From: Dictyostelium discoideum | Taxonomy: Eukaryota | Direction of reading: 5' to 3' | Length of the DNA stretch: 64,000 nucleotides | NCBI GenBank assembly: GCA_000004695.1 | Contig: CM000152.2 | Coordinates: 4,320,001-4,384,000, forward strand | Shown: piece after piece, positions 2,929 to 51,656 of the stretch | How the letters are laid out: each line of letters opens with the position of its first letter | Numbering within the stretch: position 1 is the stretch's first letter | Notes under the pieces: model-generated | Databases searched by the model: none | Told to the model about the DNA's origin: nothing | What the model saw: the letters and a program-made list of their open reading frames with translations, nothing else | Made by a program: the position numbers and the translations under genes

Positions 2929-11907
<8,979 letters not shown>

Positions 11908-13374: not shown

Positions 13375-13646
13375 ATGGCTACACCATACATAGGTGCTAA
13401 AATAGTATTAATCTCAAAAAGTCTTGTCAAATATGAAGGTATTCTCTATACAATTGACCCAAAAGATAATACCTTGTCTTTAAAAAATGGTAAGTTTTTT
13501 TATTTTATTTTATTTTATTTTATTTTATTTTATTTTATTTTATTTTATATAGATTCAATCAACAATTTTTTTTTTTTTTTTTTATTCATAAGACTAAAAA
13601 AAAAAAAAAAAAAAGATATAAACCTAAGATCACTCTTCACTCTTCT

Positions 13647-13678
<32 letters not shown>

Positions 13679-13679
13679 G

Positions 13680-13712
<33 letters not shown>

Positions 13713-15700
13713 GAAAAAATTCCCAAAAAATCTAACTTTTTTTTTTTTTTTTTTTTTTTTTCATTAAAAAAACTTAAGTCAAATCTTTCGGAACTGAAGG
13801 AAGAAGACAAGGTACACAAATTCCACCATCAACAGAAATTTTTGATTACATTGTATTCAAGAGTTCAGATATTAATGATCTCAATATATGTGATTATCCA
13901 ACCACCCCAACAGATGACTCAAAATTAACAACACCAAAGCCAACCATCTCAACTAGTACATCACCATCATCAACAACTAGCACTCCAAATTTAACAACAC
14001 CAGGTGGTAAATCAACCTCAACTCCATCAAATGGAGTTGCAAACCAACCAACTCCAACTCAACCAACCCAACCAACCCTACCAACCCAACCACAACAACC
14101 AATTCAACCACAACAACCAACTCAACAATCAGTTCAACCACCACCACCACAACAACCAACCCAACCAAATCCACAACAACAACACCAACAACAACACCAA
14201 CATCAACAACACCCACAACAACCAACAATGATGAATGGTGGTATGCCAAATTTCCAACAATATGGAAACTATTCAAATCAACCACAATATGGCAATTACC
14301 CACAATTTATGCCAGCCTATGGTGGTATGCCAATGTATAGTCCATACATGAACTATTATCCATACGGTTATGGTATGCCACAAGGCCAACCAATGAATCA
14401 ACCACCATATGGTGTTTATAAACCACCAGCTGCTGTTCCAGTGACTCCACTTGCTAATCAACAACCACATCACCACCAACAACCAACCACTACTACTCCT
14501 ACCACTACCCCTGCAACTTCCACTTCAACATCAGCAGTTCCAACAACAACCCCAACAACAACAACTCCAGCCACAACAACAACAACTCCAACCCCAGCTA
14601 CAACAACAACTCCAACTCCAGCTCAAGTAACCCCAGCTGTACCACAACCAACAACTTCAAAACCAGCCCCAGTTGTAGCAGCCCCAGTTGTAGCAACCCC
14701 AACTCCAGCCCCAGTCGTTGCAACCCCAACCCCAACTCCAACCCCAACTCCAGTTACACCAAATCCAACTGTTAGAGTTGACCCATCAAGTGGACCAGTT
14801 ACAGCTGCTGCTGTTGTTGCCGCTGCTACAGGTATTGCAGGTATTCAAGGTACAACTACATCTGCACCAAACACAAACACAACAAACAATAACAATAACA
14901 GCAACAACAACAACTACCAAAGATTCAATAACCAAAACAGAAATAACACCAATAATACAAGATATCAAGGTAATAATACCAATCAAATCAGAACACCAAT
15001 TAATGGTCAAACTCAATTACAAAATCAACAACAAAATCAACAACAAAATCAACAACAACAACAAAATCAACAATTTAGAAAGAAATTCAATAACAACAAC
15101 AGCATTAATAATAATAATCAAACCTTATCTCAAAACAACAATGTATCATCAACAAATAACTTCCAACAAAGAGGTAACAACTATAAAAAACATCATAATC
15201 AACCAAAAACCACTAAGGAGTCTTTAGAAGAATTTGATTTTGAATTATCAAACTCTAAATTTAGCAAGGATAAATTGGCTGAAGAATTCACCACTACCAC
15301 AACCACCACAGAAATCACAAGCAACAGTATCTCAAGTAGCATTAGTAGTACCTCTGGTTTGAATGAGGATGAAATTGACGAGTCTGCAATCGAAGCCATC
15401 ACCGCCGGTATCTCTCATTTACCAACCTACTCACCAACTAGTTTCTTTGATAGCATTTCATGTGAAGCTTTAGATAAGGCAAACGAAGGTCAAGGTAAAT
15501 CAAAATCACTCTATGAACAAAGAAAAATCGATCAAGAAACCTTTGGTGTTTTATCTGTTAGATATGGTAGAGGTGGTAGAGGTGGAAGAGGTGGTAGACA
15601 TAATAATAGTCACAGATACTATAATAATAATAATAACAACAACAATAGTAACACTACCCAAAACAAAACAAACGCTTTCCAACAACAAAAAACTCAATAA
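13375..15700 (+). CDS. LSm14/Scd6/RAP55-family mRNP protein with an LSm domain, FDF motif, FFD-TFG boxes and an RGG tail; 2 exons
   Basis: Exon 1 is 13375-13489 ([38 protein letters not shown], donor G|GTAAGT). The 289-nt intron carries a (TTTTA)n microsatellite and T/A homopolymers. The acceptor is cttaag at 13778 and exon 2 is 13779-15700. The junction reconstitutes ..[39 protein letters not shown], which matches the LSm14 N-terminus [22 protein letters not shown]...VRSFGTEDR. The C-terminal part has [21 protein letters not shown] (FDF), FFDSIS.. and ETFG boxes and [11 protein letters not shown], and is Q/N/T/P-rich. Confidence 0.8.
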
Positions 15701-28097: not shown

Positions 28098-31000
28098 ATT
28101 ATTATTTTAGACCATCATATTTAAGGGCTGGATTTAGAGCATTTGGAAAATTACAATTATTAAGTATTTTTTTATATGCAATAAGTGTTGGAATCCAATT
28201 TGTTGGACCAGAAATTTTAGGTAGAATGGTTACATTTGTAGTTGAATCAAAATTAGGAACATCCACAGAAGATCCAAATATGGGATACTATTATGCATTG
28301 ATTATGTTTGGGACTGCGATGATTGGTTCATTTTGTACATACCATGCTAATAGAATTTCATTTAGAACTGGCGATCGTGTAAGTACCCCCTTTTCTTTTT
28401 TTTTTGTTTTTTTTTTTTTATTTTTTTTTTATATTTTATTAATCATTTTTTTATTTATTTTTATTTATTTTTTAGTTAAGATCAATCATTGTTTTAGATG
28501 TTTATAAAAAAGCAATTAAATTATCAAATTCAGCAAGATCAGATACATCACCAGGCCAAATTGTAAATTTGATGAGTAATGATGCTCAAAGAATGGTTGA
28601 AGTATTTGGAATGTTTAATAATGGCGCACTTGCATTACCACAAATTATTATTTGTCTTGCATTATTATATAAAAAGATTGGTTGGCCAACATTTGTAGGA
28701 TTGGGTTTAATGTTAGCTGCAATTCCATTCAATGGAATGGCTGCAAAGAAATTAACTGAAACTAGAAAATATTTAGTCTCACTTTCAGATAGTCGTGTTA
28801 AAGCTACAAATGAAATTTTACAAGCTATTAAAATTATAAAATTATATGCATGGGAAGATAGTTTTGCTAAAAAGGTATAATATATTTTTTAAATATTAGT
28901 AAGATCATTAAAAGAAATTATAATTTTTATAATATATTTATTTATTTATTTTTTTATATTTTATTTTTTATTTTTTACTATAATGATAATGATAATAATT
29001 ATAGGTTATTGAACATCGTAATAATGAAATTAAATTATTATTTTCATATAGTCGTTATAGAACTATTTTAATTGTTATTATTAGTGCTTTACCAACTGCT
29101 GCTGCTATTTTAGTAATTTCATCATATTATGGACATGAGAAATCTTTAGATGCAAGTAGAATTTTTAGTGCACTTTCATATTTAAATTTATTAAGACTTC
29201 CATTAGGTTTCTTACCAATTATAATTGCATTGGGTATTCAAATGCAAATTGCAGGTAAAAGAGTTACTGATTTTCTATTATTACCAGAAATGAAAGATAT
29301 TCAACAAATTGATAATCCTTCATTACCAAATGGTGTTTATATGAAAAATTCAACAACAACTTGGAATAAACTTAAAGAAGATTCATTTGGTTTAAAAAAT
29401 ATTAATTTTGAAGCTACTGGAACATCATTAACAATGGTTGTTGGTTCAGTCGGATCGGGTAAATCAACATTGGTACAGGCAATGTTGGGAGAGTTAGAGA
29501 TTATTGATGGAGAAATCGGTATTAAAGGCTCAATTGCTTATGTACCTCAACAAGCATGGATTATCAATGCAACATTAAAAGAGAATATTATTTTTGGTAA
29601 AGAATTGGATGAAGAAAGGTATCAAAAAGTATTAGAAGTTTGTGCATTAAAACGTGATATTGAATTATTTCCACAAGGTGATTCAGTAGAAATTGGTGAA
29701 CGTGGTATTAACCTTTCAGGTGGTCAAAAACAAAGAGTTTCAATTGCTCGTGCAGTATATTCAGATGCAGATGTTTATATTTTAGATGATCCATTATCAG
29801 CAGTGGACTCACATGTTGGTAAACATTTATTCCATAAATGTTTTAAAGGTATTCTATCAAGTAAAACAGTTATTTTAGTAGCAAATCAATTAAATTATTT
29901 ACCATTTGCTGATAATACAGTTGTATTAAAATCAGGAGAAATCGTTGAAAGAGGTACCTATTATGAATTAATTAATTCTAAATTAGAATTTTCAAGTATT
30001 CTTGAAAAGTATGGTGTTGATGAAAATGTTATATCCAAAAAAGATGACATTGATGAAGATGAAGATGAAGATCAAGATACTATTGAAAAGGTTGAAATAG
30101 ATTTAAATAAAGATGAAAAGTCTCAACCAAAATCAAAATCATCAAATACTGACGGAACATTAATATCAGAGGAAGAAAGTGAACAAGGAGCTGTTGCGGG
30201 AAAGGTATATTGGAAATATGTCACAGCTGGTGGTGGTTTATTATTCTTGGTTTCAATGATATTCTTTTTATTAGAAACTGGTTCAAAAACATTTTCAGAT
30301 TGGTGGTTATCACATTGGCAAACAGAGTCATCAGAAAGAATGGAATCAATATTACTAGGTGAGGAACCTACTGGTTTAACTGATGATCAAAATTTAGGTA
30401 TTTATATTGGTCTTGGTATGGCAGCTGTTTTCATTTCAGTTTGTAAGAATTTTATTTATTATGAATATTCAGTGTATGCATCACGTGCAATTCATCATGA
30501 GTTGTTCAATGCATTATTAAAGAAACCAATGTATTTCTTTGACCAAACACCAATTGGTAGAATTATAAATCGTTTCACTAGAGATTTAGATGGTATTGAT
30601 AATTTAATCGCAACTTCAATATCAACATTTTTAACTTTAATGTTAACTGTAATTGCAACTATTATCCTTGTTTCAATCATTGTTCCATTCCTTTTAATTC
30701 CATTGGCACCAATTAGTATAATATTCTTCTTTTTACAATACTTTTATAGATATACATCAAGAGGTTTACAAAGAATTGAAGCTATTACACGTTCACCAAT
30801 TTTCAATCATTTCTCTGAAACTTTAAATGGTGTAGTTTCAATTAGAGCATATAAAAAACAACAAGAGAATATATTAATAAATCAAAAACGTTTAGATGAT
30901 AATAATAATTGTTATTTAACACTACAAGCAATGAATAGATGGTTAGGTTTGCGTTTAGATTTTTTAGCAAATTTAATTACATTTTTTGCTTGTATTTTCA

Positions 31001-32153
31001 TTACAATCGATAAGGATACAATTAGTCCTGCAAATGTTGGTTTAGCATTAGGTTATGCACTTTCATTAACTGGTAATTTAAATTATGCAGCACTTCAAGC
31101 AGCCGATACTGAAACTAAAATGAATTCAGTTGAACGTATTTCACAATATATTAGAGGAGCAGTTGAAGCACCACAAATTATTGATGATTGTCGTCCATCA
31201 CCAGATTGGCCAATAAATGGGTCAATTAAATTTGATAATTTAGTAATGCGTTATCGTGAAGGATTAGATCCAGTATTAAAAGGTATAACATGTGAAATTA
31301 AAGCAAAAGAAAAGATTGGTATTGTAGGCCGTACTGGTGCAGGTAAAAGTTCAATCGTTTTAGCATTGTTCCGTTTAATTGAAGCTTCAGAAGGTTCAAT
31401 TTCAATTGATGGTGAAAATATTGCCAAATTCGGATTAAAAGATTTACGTAGAAATTTAGCAATCATTCCACAAGATCCAGTATTATTCAGTGGTACACTT
31501 CGTGAAAATTTAGATCCATTCAATGAACGTTCTGAAGAGGATTTATTTTCAACAATTGAAGATATTCAAATGAGTGCAGTTGTTAAATCTTTAGAGGGTG
31601 GTTTAGACTCAAAAGTAACAGAAAATGGTGAAAACTTTTCAGTTGGACAAAGACAATTAATTGTATTAGCTCGTGCATTATTAAGAAAACCAAAGATTTT
31701 AGTTTTAGACGAAGCAACTGCCTCTGTCGATGGTCAAAGTGATTCATTAATTCAAGCAACAATTCGTAATAAGTTTAGTAATTGTACAATTTTAACAATT
31801 GCTCATAGACTTAATACAATTAGTAAGTTTTTATTTTTGTTTAAAATTCTTATTTTTTATTTTTTAAAAATTCAAATATTAACTATTAATTAAAATAATT
31901 AGTGGATAGTGATAGGATTATGGTACTTGATGCAGGTAAAATTAGTGAATTTGATGAACCATGGACATTATTACAAAATCAAAATGGTTTATTAACATGG
32001 TTAGTAGATGAAACTGGTCCTCAAAATGCAATTTATTTACGTAAATTAGCTGAAGCAAAGAAAAATGGTATAGATATAAATGAAATTATGCCAATTGATA
32101 ATGAAACAACTCCAAAGGATAATATCAATACACCACCACCACCACCTCAATAA
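27748..32153 (+). CDS. ABC transporter C-family (MRP-type, short form), copy B, 5 exons, 1334 aa
   Basis: Exons: 27748-28016, 28111-28378, 28476-28874, 29005-31822, 31903-32153, with GTAAGT/GTATAA donors and AG acceptors. Phases 2/0/0/1 all reconstitute conserved sequence, for example ..AHRLNTI|[13 protein letters not shown] across the last intron. The domain content matches copy A. The upstream in-frame Met codons of track ORF 27568-28020 lie in poly-A DNA and are not used. Confidence 0.85.
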
Positions 32154-32625: not shown

Positions 32626-32672
<47 letters not shown>

Positions 32673-32683
32673 AAAAGTAGACA

Positions 32684-32740
32684 GTTGACGAGGGGTTTTT
32701 TTAATCAGTAAAAATTTGAGAGGATTTGCTGTAAGGTCAA
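32684..32740 (-). ncRNA. Class I RNA (Dictyostelium-specific small ncRNA, 57 nt)
   Basis: The minus strand reads GTTGACCTTACAGCAAATCCTCTCAAATTTTTACTGATTAAAAAACCCCTCGTCAAC. The 5' GTTGAC and 3' GTCAAC are perfectly complementary, forming the class I terminal stem. The invariant 11-nt motif CCTTACAGCAA sits immediately after the 5' stem arm. Length is within the 42-65 nt class range. A DUSE lies about 63-73 nt upstream. Confidence 0.8.
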
Positions 32741-32810
32741 CTTGTTTGTGAAACACATCAAAATATTCACCAACAAAATTTAAATTTCACCTAATTTTTT
32801 TAAAAAAATA

Positions 32811-32820
32811 TATTATGGGA
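32811..32820 (-). promoter_or_regulatory. DUSE (Dictyostelium upstream sequence element, consensus [AT]CCCA[CT]AA) for the class I RNA gene
   Basis: The plus strand attatgggat equals minus-strand ATCCCATAAT, roughly 63-73 nt upstream of the predicted class I RNA 5' end at 32740. That is the usual DUSE distance. Confidence 0.7.
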
Positions 32821-32889
32821 TATCTTAAAAATAAAAATGAAAAAAAATAATAAAAAATAAAAAAAAAATGAAAAAAATAAAATAAAAAA

Positions 32890-33400
32890 ATAGAGCATTA
32901 AATTCAAAATTGAGATATTCAAGAGTGGCTAGTTGTACCATTTGTTAAGGAGGGTTTATTGGCAGACATCTTACACAAAATCTAAATATTGTGTCTTTTG
33001 TTTTGTGATCTCTTATTATTAGATTTATTTTATAATAATTGATCATAAAAAATAGCATCTCTAGTTGAGTGTCGATTGTAATTCAGTCTTTGGAATTTCG
33101 TTAAGACAATCTGCTACTTTTTCTTTTTTTGGTACCCAAAAAAAAAAACAAGAATGGGGAGAGATGATTCTGAAATACAATAGTAATTAGCTGTTGTTTT
33201 TCTTAGCTTGATCGTTGAGGTGAGAAGGATCTTAGGATCTTTGAAGTTATTATGGTCTTTTGCTGATAAGTTTTTCAGATCTTTTGCTTTTTTGATGTAT
33301 TCTAGAGTGGCCAATTTGTGCCATTTCTTTAGAAGGGAACTGTATGATAGTTATTCATTTGTTAAAGGATCTTCACTGTATATTTGATTCCAATTCAGAA
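32890..33400. mobile_element. GC-normal, non-coding, internally repetitive block immediately downstream of tRNA-Phe; possible relic of a tRNA-targeted retroelement (TRE3-like) or an unknown ncRNA locus
   Basis: Unlike the surrounding ~85% AT intergenic DNA, this roughly 500-bp block has balanced composition and no long ORF. It contains degenerate direct repeats (agagtggctagttgtaccatttgttaaggagg at 32921 versus agagtggccaatttgtgccatttctttagaagg at 33301; agaatggggag at 33153 and 33399). It lies where TRE3 elements insert, about 50-100 bp 3' of tRNA genes. The assignment is speculative. Confidence 0.25.
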
Positions 33401-33403
33401 TGG

Positions 33404-33414
33404 GGAGTTGAACC
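33404..33414 (-). promoter_or_regulatory. External B box (ex-B) downstream of tRNA-Phe
   Basis: Minus-strand GGTTCAACTCC matches the B-box consensus GGTTCGAnTCC and sits about 36 nt 3' of the tRNA. Such extra B boxes follow many Dictyostelium tRNA genes. Confidence 0.6.
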
Positions 33415-34162: not shown

Positions 34163-34744
34163 TTAAAGTATAATACAACCAGATTTCTTTTTACCTGCTT
34201 TTCCTTTTGTTGGTTTATCACCTGATGGAACACCAGATGCACTTGAAGAACCATCTTGACTCTTTTTATCCATACCTCTTGATTCAAGAACGATTTCAAT
34301 GGCAGCACTGAAAACTTCTTCTAAACCTTGACGAGTCTTTGCAGAGACTTCTAAATATTTCTTGGCTTTAATTTGTTTTTGCATTGAAATACCCATATCG
34401 GCAGTGATTGGTTCGAATTTACCAGAGTTTGGATCTGGGTGTTGTTGTTCACGTAAATCGATTTTAGTACCAACTAAAATTGATGGTACATCTGGGATAT
34501 AGTGATTAACTTCTGGTGCCCACTAATTTTTAAAATTAAAAATAAAAAAAATAAAAAAATGATTAATACTATAAACAAAGTGATCATATGATATCACTAT
34601 AACTTACTTTATCTCTAATGGCTTCATATGATGATTGACTGATTGTGCTGAAACAAAGGAGAACAACATCAGCGCCTGGGTATGATAATGGACCTATTAA
34701 AATAAAAAAATAAAAAAAAAAGATTAATAATCTCTCTTGTCAAA

Positions 34745-35462: not shown

Positions 35463-35640
35463 TTTATTGATATTTATATGAAATAATTGGGAATTTTTTG
35501 GTTTTAATTTATTTATATTACTATTAAACTAAGTGATAATTTGATTAGTTTTAATTTTGTCCTGTTATTATTTATAATGATGAAAATACAAATTAATATT
35601 ATGAATATATAATAACGGTTGGGGTGAGAAAAAAAAAAAA

Positions 35641-35682
<42 letters not shown>

Positions 35683-35956
35683 AAAAAAAAAAAAATACAA
35701 AAAAAAAAAAAAAAAAAAAAATTAAAAAAAAAAAAATTATTTTGTTTATTAGAAAATGAGTGATCACCAACTTTTATTTTTTTTTGGTTTTTTTTTTTAA
35801 AAAAAAAAAATTCTGAATTTCTTAAATAAATAAATAAATAAATAATAAATAATAAATAATAAATAAAGAATAAAAATATATAAATAAAAATAGTTGCAGA
35901 TATTTGTTTCTTTTTTTTTTTTTTTTAATAAAAAAAGAAAAAAAAAATTTTTAAAG

Positions 35957-40503: not shown

Positions 40504-41689
40504 TTATTTTTCACCAACAATCTCATATATTTCTTTATTTGAGTAAATTTTAACTGTATTTGATGGTGGTGAATTTAAAAGTTCATTTTCCTATAAAAAA
40601 ATAAAATAAAAAAAAATTAGTAAGAGGTTCAGATTTTGTGAAAAAGAAAATAATAATAATAATAATAACTTACAGCTTCAATTCTCATTGCTTTTGCAAG
40701 TGTTGAAACCTTCATTGGTGAAACTACTTTAATAAAGACATTTTCAATCCAACGATCTCCGACTCCTCTCTATTAAAAAAAAAAAAATAAAAAAAAATAA
40801 AAAAATAAAAAAAAATAAAAAAATAAAAAATTATTAGTATTTACCAAGATATTAAAAAAAAAGATTTTATTATTATCTCCGACTCCTCTCTATTAAAAAA
40901 AAAAAAAACATACATCTAAAAATCCTGGTCTGAATATTGAGAGATAATGGAAACCTTCTTTTTTCATCTTTTCTTCGATTTCACCTTTAACTTTTGGATA
41001 AAGGAAAAATGAATTTGGATTTGAACCTGTTGATGTTAATAAATGCATAGAACGTACACCAGATTCTTTTGATAGGTCTGCAAATTTTGATGAAATACCT
41101 AATTCAATCTCTCTGAATCTTTCTGCACTACCTATAATAGTAAAAAAATTTATTTAGTTTTTTTTTTTTCTTTTTTTTTTATTCCAATTTCCCTCTATAT
41201 AAATAAAATTAAAGAATTTACCTGCTTGTTTTCTAGTTGTACCCAAAACATTAAATGCAGCATCCTTATCTTTAAATTCTTCTTTATAATCTTCTAATTT
41301 ATCAAAGTCAACTACAACTTGTTTTAATTTTTCTAATAAATAAATAAATAAATAAATAAATTAGATAATTAATGCTTTTTTAGAAAATATATATATAAAA
41401 TTAATATACCATTTTGGATAGAAAGATCTTCTTTTCTAACTAAAGATGTAACTTGAACGAATTTTGAGTCAATCAACTCACGAATTAAATGTTTTCCAGT
41501 TGCACCGGTACCACCAATGACTATACACTTTGCACCTTGACTCATGTTGTAATATTTGAAATTGTATGGTTTGTAATTTGATATCTCTGAGTTTTCACTT
41601 ATTGTATTAATGAAATAACCACTATTATTATAAATATATTGAAATATAAATGCAATACTTGTTATTAAAATAAAATAAAACTTTTTCAT
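40504..41689 (-). CDS. HTATIP2/TIP30 (CC3)-like NAD(P)-binding oxidoreductase with an N-terminal signal/anchor, 5 exons
   Basis: Exon 1 is 41689-~41410 (MKKFYFILITSIAFIFQ...GAKCIVIGGTGATGKHLIRELIDSKFVQVTSLVRKEDLSIQNG). Later exons encode EKLKQVVVDFDKLEDYKEEFKDKDAAFNVLGTTRKQAG, SAEGFREIELGISSKFADLSKESGVRSMHLLTSTGSNPNSFFLYPKVKGEIEEKMKKEGFHYLSIFRPGFLD, RGVGDRWIENVFIKVVSPMKVSTLAKAMRIEA and ENELLNSPPSNTVKIYSNKEIYEIVGEK. These align along the length of human HTATIP2 (..[69 protein letters not shown]..). Confidence 0.7.
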
Positions 41690-44905: not shown

Positions 44906-44990
<85 letters not shown>

Positions 44991-45366
44991 TATTAATAAT
45001 AAAAAAAAAAAAAAACATAAAATAAAATAAAAATGGTAATAATAAAAAAATGATATAATTTATAAAGTAATATTGTGTTTGGTAGTGCTGAACATTTATA
45101 TTTTTATTATAATAATATTATTAGACTAATATTATTATGTGCATGATTAAATATTGTTTTTATTAATTTTATTATTATTTTTATTATTATTTATAGTTGA
45201 TTAAAATGTATCATAATATATGAATTAATGATTAAAGATAATTTAAATTTTTATTTTGAGTATAATTTTATTATTTAATTATAAAGATAAAGAGGGATTT
45301 TTATTTTTTTTTATTTTTATTTTTTTTTTTTTTAGAGTTATTATTCTTTGTTCTATATTATTATTA

Positions 45367-51038: not shown

Positions 51039-51656
51039 ACTATTTTTATTATTTTCAGTGATAACACCAATTGTTGGTGTATTTAATTGTATTGATGCTC
51101 CACTGCCACCAGAAGCACCAATTGAAATATTTTGTGTTGGTAAATTATCAAGTGATTTCATTACCATATCTTCTATTGGTTCATTATCTTCATTATCTTG
51201 TTCATTGTTGTTATTGACTATTTCTTCCTCTTCATAATAAGTTTCTGTATTTTGTTTAGTTTCTTCCTCTTGTAGTTTTTCATTGTAATCTTGATCTTCA
51301 TTTTTAATATCACCACTATCATTATCATTATTATTATTGTTATCATTATTATTATTATTATTAGTAGTAGTAGTAGTATTTGTTGAGGTATTAGTAATAG
51401 CTGTAACTGTGGTTTCTGTTGCTGCTGTTGTTGTTGTAGTTGTTGTTGTAGTGGTGGTTGTATTATTATTATTATTATTACTATTAACTGGTTGACCCAA
51501 AGCAAAACGATTATGTGAACCACATCTTGTACATTTCCAATCTAATGATTTTAATGCTAATTCCTTTCTATCTTTTGTTGGTAAATCAATAGCACCAATT
51601 GCACCTTTTCCTTCTGTTGGCATAAATCCAATTAATGCAACTAAAACTGTTCTAAC

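Follow-up and report, generated by a model that had tools for sequence, protein, structure and literature searches.

A Class I RNA locus on Dictyostelium discoideum chromosome 3: DdR-33, its promoter layout and its surroundings

A short stretch on the minus strand of Dictyostelium discoideum chromosome 3 raises two questions: does it carry a Class I RNA gene preceded by a DUSE promoter element, as a sequence-only reading had proposed, and, if so, is this a copy that annotation has missed? The DNA analyzed here, which we will call the window, comprises 64,000 nt (assembly GCA_000004695.1, contig CM000152.2, positions 4,320,001 to 4,384,000 of the forward strand), and positions are counted from its first base unless chromosome coordinates are given.

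Class I RNAs are described as intergenic RNAs of ~60 nt with a GC content of 32–41% (PMC7919456). Their ends are joined by a 6-bp stem that is kept as structure, and an 11-nt motif, largely unpaired, lies near the 5' arm of this stem (PMC7919456). One should also expect an invariant 5' G after a genomic AA and a 3' CUGU, the latter being included in the mature RNA (PMC7919456). The elements of the gene that will be discussed below are as follows:

32681..32741, minus strand: mature DdR-33 (gene r33), with the 5' G at 32741 and the 3' CUG(U) end at 32682/32681
32736..32741, minus strand: 5' arm of the terminal stem, GUUGAC, a perfect complement of the 3' arm, found in the MFE and centroid folds
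32684..32689, minus strand: 3' arm of the terminal stem, GUCAAC, a perfect complement of the 5' arm, seen in the fold and in paralog covariation
32726..32736, minus strand: 11-nt Class I motif, CCUUACAGCAA, exact, with its first C common to motif and stem
32754..32760, minus strand: TGTG-box variant TGATGTG, placed 59 nt past the DUSE and 13 nt ahead of the mature 5' end
32813..32820, minus strand: DUSE, a putative promoter element, TCCCATAA, read from the window sequence and given as the MEME site for r33 by the authors of the published set
32630..32676, minus strand: T4 (32676–32673) followed by T42 (32671–32630), a likely Pol III termination signal

Identity and structure of the RNA

The proposal of a Class I RNA gene on the minus strand came with a suggested check, a covariance-model search, and both the proposal and the check hold up. 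Minus-strand positions 32741..32682 match the Rfam family RF01414 (Dicty_Class_I_RNA) with 50.8 bits (E = 7.3e-7), above the curated gathering score of 41.5, and the alignment is full-length (model positions 1–56) with 0 non-canonical pairs. DdR-33 departs from the family consensus by a 4-nt insertion in the variable loop, which is normal variation for the family.

Next to this family-level match stands identity with a single published gene. A script check gave 60/60 nt identity between the locus and DdR-33 of the curated D. discoideum Class I set (PMC7919456, supplementary file 19), the FASTA of which comes from Kjellin et al. 2021 (Genome Res 31:436; the same PMC7919456). The published position of DdR-33 is chromosome 3 (DDB0232430) 4352682–4352741 on the minus strand (PMC7919456, BED and published_class_I.gff), and these coordinates minus 4,320,000 are those of the window, with the strand in agreement. 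The 60 nt, the strand, the flanks of the DUSE, and the coordinates are all the same in the DdR-33 record and in the window, that is, this is the same locus with no difference. Judged by its sequence, the locus is almost certainly the D. discoideum Class I RNA gene DdR-33/r33, and we found nothing that argues against this identity.

The second question can therefore be answered from the same comparison: since sequence and position equal those of the annotated r33, the gene is not an overlooked Class I member. It is listed in the published GFF as gene r33, DDB_G0295553, GenBank AJ699394, with the type class_I_RNA and the source 'Soderbom group' (PMC7919456), and it is already known, being annotated in both GenBank and dictyBase. 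The idea that this copy might have escaped annotation must accordingly be dropped. Re-validation of r33 by RNA-seq was published in 2021 (PMC7919456), and a full-text literature search on the name 'DdR-33' returned no match.

Some details of the gene model required adjustment. The perfect 6-bp terminal stem is present as originally described (GTTGAC at 32741–32736 and GTCAAC at 32689–32684). The 11-nt motif is exact, and the authors' script gives the same motif for DdR-33 (PMC7919456), but it does not sit directly 3' of the stem arm as first stated; the two overlap by one C, and the junction reads GTTGACCTTACAGCAA. In its DNA form, CCTTACAGCAA (32736–32726), the motif occurs as a single copy in the whole window. 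A genomic AA precedes the 5' G and CUGU is present at the 3' end (...GUCAACUGU), so that the minus-strand locus reads ...ACAA, then GTTGACCTTACAGCAAATCCTCTCAAATTTTTACTGATTAAAAAAACCCCTCGTCAACTGT, then CTACTTTTG(T)42. The length, first given as 57 nt, is 58 nt from stem to stem; the mature RNA measures 60 nt if it ends with CUG and 61 nt if it ends with CUGU. With a GC content of 36.7%, both size and GC fall within the family ranges. At the level of sequence, DdR-33 possesses each of the Class I characteristics, namely the stem, the motif, the ends, the length, the GC content, the DUSE spacing, and the intergenic site.

Is the stem kept as a structure, or are its two arms simply conserved as sequence? 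One way of assessing this is to look for paired changes among paralogs, and the locus was therefore aligned with a further 26 distinct Class I RNAs from the curated D. discoideum set (27 paralogs). In this alignment, 96.9% of the cells of the terminal stem are paired, with changes on both sides (compensatory changes) in three of the six pairs; controls in shifted registers reached ≤54%. The fold of DdR-33 reproduces the authors' structure, with the terminal stem formed and the interior largely open, and the 11-nt motif is unpaired in the predicted centroid fold. The predicted fold energy is no more stable than that of shuffled sequence (z = -1.2); stability is therefore not counted as support, and a value at the level of shuffles is in keeping with a short stem closing an open interior.

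Short motifs such as these should be weighed against chance. The DUSE octamer pattern is found nine times in the window, with 9.3 expected, and the 11-mer motif with ≤1 mismatch is expected 0.43 times, so neither is significant alone. The composite pattern (stem plus motif, 25–55 nt, stem plus TGT) occurs once in the window and in 0 of 100 shuffles. It is the combination of features, not the single short motifs, that significantly exceeds chance. A search of metagenomes for the Group-4 Class I signature (stem plus motif, then stem) gave 0 matches; the published finding is that the family is restricted to Dictyostelia. Two DUSE-like octamers at 14211 and 14298 were set aside as incidental because they lie inside Pro/Thr/Gln-rich coding sequence.

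Two relatives are useful for comparison. DdR-31, encoded on chromosome 5, is the nearest paralog, with 56 of 61 aligned positions identical to DdR-33. The two RNAs have the core AAAUUUUUACUGAUUAAAAAAA in common, are similarly very abundant, and both possess a non-consensus TGTG box (TAATGTG in DdR-31). They differ in the stem, which is GUUGGC in DdR-31 and has a G-U pair where DdR-33 has A-U, and in the DUSE, which in DdR-31 is the variant ACCCATAA, besides lying on different chromosomes. DdR-21, which represents the family with regard to Rnp1A binding and a developmental phenotype, has the same stem sequence, 11-nt motif, and ends as DdR-33, but its variable core differs, and its DUSE and TGTG box are placed 90 and 29 nt from the mature 5' end, as opposed to 72 and 13 nt in DdR-33.

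Promoter elements and the polymerase

The DUSE core TCCCATAA is contained in ATCCCATAAT at 32821–32812 (minus strand). In the authors' MEME output the site for r33 is given with its flanks as TTTTAAGATA-TCCCATAA-TATATTTTTT (PMC7919456), and these flanks are identical to the window sequence. The element had been placed about 65 nt upstream of the RNA; the element itself is there, but it runs from 79 to 72 nt upstream of the mature 5' G. Row r33 of Table S2 lists duse_dist 72, TGTG-box_seq TGATGTG, dist 13, and inter_dist 59 (PMC7919456), and the distances measured in the window are the same as these values.

The general rule for Class I genes is that the DUSE lies ~60 nt upstream of the transcription start site or, in D. 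discoideum, of the TGTG box, the distance of which from the mature 5' end varies (PMC7919456). In the authors' data, high-scoring Class I candidates without a DUSE in the correct place are not expressed (PMC7919456). The box of r33, TGATGTG, departs from the consensus AAATGTG and receives a FIMO score of 0 (PMC7919456, Table S2). DdR-28 has the same variant with the same score, yet both RNAs are highly expressed (Table S2, PMC7919456), which suggests that the ATGTG core is the only part of the box that matters.

Which polymerase reads the gene is less easily decided. The T4 run starts 5 nt past CUGU and is followed by a single G and then by the uninterrupted T42. Runs of T are found behind many Class I genes, which the authors take as a sign of Pol III, the polymerase they favor for the class (PMC7919456). 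The DUSE, however, occurs at both Pol II (snRNA) and Pol III genes (PMC7919456). Since it also serves the Pol II snRNA genes, Pol III is unproven for r33.

One might instead regard r33 as a Pol II transcript, like those of the DUSE-driven U1, U2, U4, and U5 snRNA genes, with the T-run being simply AT-rich intergenic DNA. The association of the DUSE with Pol II and Pol III genes alike would be consistent with this, as would the long T or A homopolymers found across the window; because these are common, the T-run alone is weak evidence for Pol III. The layout of T4 and T42 just past CUGU is, however, that of a canonical Pol III terminator, and the authors' preference for the class also points away from Pol II, so we consider a Pol II transcript unlikely. 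The T42 run extends far beyond the length that a Pol III terminator needs. Other long homopolymers, which are frequent in the window, include A108 at 35629–35736 and A122 at 44912–45033.

Possible mode of action

Transcription of r33 would depend on the DUSE, which keeps the canonical spacing of ~60 nt to a TGTG-type box downstream. This box may serve as a second promoter element, or a short precursor that later loses a 13-nt leader may begin there. The polymerase, probably Pol III, would stop in the T4/T42 run. The ends of the RNA are clamped by the covarying 6-bp stem, with the 11-nt motif predicted to stay single-stranded. DdR-33 accumulates to a very high level and, by analogy with the family, would be found mainly in the cytoplasm. 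Like DdR-21, it would most likely bind Rnp1A/CIBP, an essential protein with two RRMs, together with the partners of this protein, and by titrating them or serving as their scaffold it may modulate early multicellular development.

Much of this scheme is borrowed. Class I RNAs are mainly cytoplasmic, and the direct binding of DdR-21 by Rnp1A is the only demonstrated interaction in the family (PMC7919456). Protein binding, localization, and the knockout phenotype were measured on DdR-21, the loss of which results in more and smaller fruiting bodies (PMC7919456); the knockout and probing data are likewise from DdR-21 and not from DdR-33. It is from the family or from DdR-21 that we infer the polymerase, the processing of a precursor, the location of DdR-33 in the cytoplasm, its binding of protein, and the sponge mechanism. 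With these analogies in mind, titration or scaffolding of protein through the shared 11-nt motif appears to be the most likely mechanism, at about even confidence.

The authors' own hypotheses for Class I RNAs include, besides a sponge, direct binding to mRNA (PMC7919456). DdR-33 could accordingly be a true Class I RNA whose variable loop or 11-nt motif base-pairs with mRNA, without sequestering protein. [quoted passage not shown] Against this, no target has been reported, the sole demonstrated family interaction is that of Rnp1A with DdR-21 (PMC7919456), and an invariant motif is easier to explain as a protein-recognition site common to the paralogs. We regard pairing through the variable loop as the main alternative to protein titration, and as an improbable one.

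Surroundings and expression of the gene

The following genes in the window should be kept in mind when considering the setting of DdR-33:

13375–15700, plus strand: LSm14/Scd6-like gene, with an LSm-type N-terminus, an apparent intron, an FDF motif, and RGG repeats
29230–31893, plus strand: ABCC/MRP-type ABC transporter, with two Walker-type ATP-binding regions in an open stretch of 887 aa
33523–33450, minus strand: tRNA-Phe(GAA), found by ARAGORN and Rfam, 709 nt upstream of DdR-33
34163–34396, minus strand: C-terminal exon of a Ras-family (Rac-like) small GTPase, with the last residues GCIIL

DdR-33 is intergenic, with the ABCC-type ORF, which ends at ~31.9 kb (plus strand), on one side and tRNA-Phe at 33.45 kb (minus strand) on the other. 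For the GTPase, the scan covered a single exon, and the Pfam Ras match, which is weak (E = 0.0099), therefore misses the cut-off. Within the LSm14/Scd6-like gene, a Pro/Thr/Gln-rich low-complexity region lifts the GC content to 44% at 14–15 kb. Long imperfect (TTG)n/(GTT)n arrays with a strong GC skew are found at 2965–3600 and 10950–11883. These arrays are probably poly-Gln/Asn coding tracts on the minus strand, of the kind typical of Dictyostelium, since their opposite strand reads as CAA-type codon repeats; the GC-skewed blocks at 3–5 kb and 11–12 kb were accordingly rejected as codon-repeat arrays unrelated to DdR-33.

The tRNA gene lies where it had been expected, about 700 bp away. A B-box-like sequence, GGTTCAACTCC, is found 36–46 nt downstream of it at 33404–33414 (minus strand), and the pattern GGTTCRANTCC is expected 0.07 times in the window. 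We take this sequence, which reads from 33414 to 33404, to resemble the 'external B box', an element that is common at D. discoideum tRNA genes. A further B-box-like match at 41017 was discarded, being inside coding-looking sequence.

Between tRNA-Phe and DdR-33 there is a block (~32905–33400) with a GC content of 30–33%, compared with 9–25% in its flanks, and with short internal direct repeats, which agrees with the 'GC-normal' repeat block that had been described here. It begins 53 nt downstream of tRNA-Phe. The block is non-coding, as no ORF of >78 aa and no Pfam match at E ≤ 1 was found in it. No further copy was found elsewhere in the window, and six diagnostic k-mers of the block were absent from 400 kb of chromosome 1.

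The internal structure of the block is of some interest. The 11-nt sequence AGAATGGGGAG is repeated exactly and in direct orientation at 33151–33161 and 33397–33407 (246 nt from start to start), the two copies flanking a 235-bp unit; at least two matches with ≤1 mismatch appeared in 4 of 100 shuffles. An A12 run (33138–33149, plus strand) abuts the first copy and faces tRNA-Phe, from which it is separated by the 246-bp piece bounded by the repeat. In addition, a 46-nt segment is present twice in the block with 78% identity (36/46).

Of the D. discoideum tRNA genes, 61% carry a TRE, TRE3 being found ~100 bp downstream of tRNA genes with a poly(A) 3' end, and Skipper-2 lies 8–23 bp downstream (PMC5006619). 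The suspicion of a retroelement relic finds some footing in position and geometry, and nested, 5'-truncated relics of the TRE3 type are plausible but unproven. One could go further and propose that the block is one or two copies of a small non-autonomous, tRNA-targeted retroelement outside the described TRE3/Skipper-2 families, because the 11-nt direct repeat flanks the 235-bp unit and the A12 tail faces the tRNA, or propose that r33 owes its output to a Pol III-active neighborhood shared with the tRNA; both ideas seem to us very doubtful. Nothing suggests a functional link among tRNA-Phe, DdR-33, and the possible relic. The claim of three small-RNA-type signals within 1 kb is correct insofar as tRNA-Phe and DdR-33 are real genes, but the third signal is only a possible relic, drawn there by the tRNA gene.

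Many members of the Class I family are clustered (PMC7919456). A permissive Rfam scan (E ≤ 1) detected no other Class I gene or non-coding RNA in the window beyond the tRNA and DdR-33; a match at 51607 was dismissed as chance level (23.9 bits, compared with a gathering score of 55.2). In the curated BED file, no further Class I gene of chromosome 3 lies within 2 Mb of DdR-33 (PMC7919456). With no Class I neighbor in the window or in that file, DdR-33 is a solitary gene.

Expression is established for r33 itself, as are its identity, structural features, and promoter layout. Its reads number 397,222–838,057 per small-RNA library at 0, 4, and 8 h of development, its read coverage was scored 1, its classifier score of 70.3 is the fourth highest, and the authors' CM score is 51.4 (PMC7919456, Table S2). 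In read number, DdR-21, DdR-60, and DdR-31 stand ahead of r33, which ranks in the top five of the class (PMC7919456, Table S2). The apparent rise in reads from 0 h to 4–8 h should not be read as regulation because the counts are raw and not normalized.

A silent or decaying Class I-like copy, that is, a pseudogene that fits the model without being expressed, would be in keeping with the solitary position outside any Class I cluster, with the off-consensus TGTG box scored 0 by FIMO (PMC7919456), and with the existence of high-scoring unexpressed D. discoideum candidates (r54, r57, and r43), but 0.4–0.8 million reads per library with validated coverage (PMC7919456) exclude it, and these reads can be assigned to DdR-33 since 5 of 61 aligned positions differ from DdR-31; the high-scoring DUSE at the correct spacing also speaks against it, and the place of AJ699394 in the same accession series as DdR-21 (AJ699382) suggests that the RNA was recovered as cDNA.

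What, then, does this locus offer? Its value for discovery is small, as r33 had been annotated and re-validated by RNA-seq before, and it is best used as a calibration point, in which a lineage-specific non-coding RNA family and its promoter element were recognized correctly from raw sequence. Because it is both very abundant and solitary, DdR-33 would make a convenient single-locus subject for dissecting the promoter.
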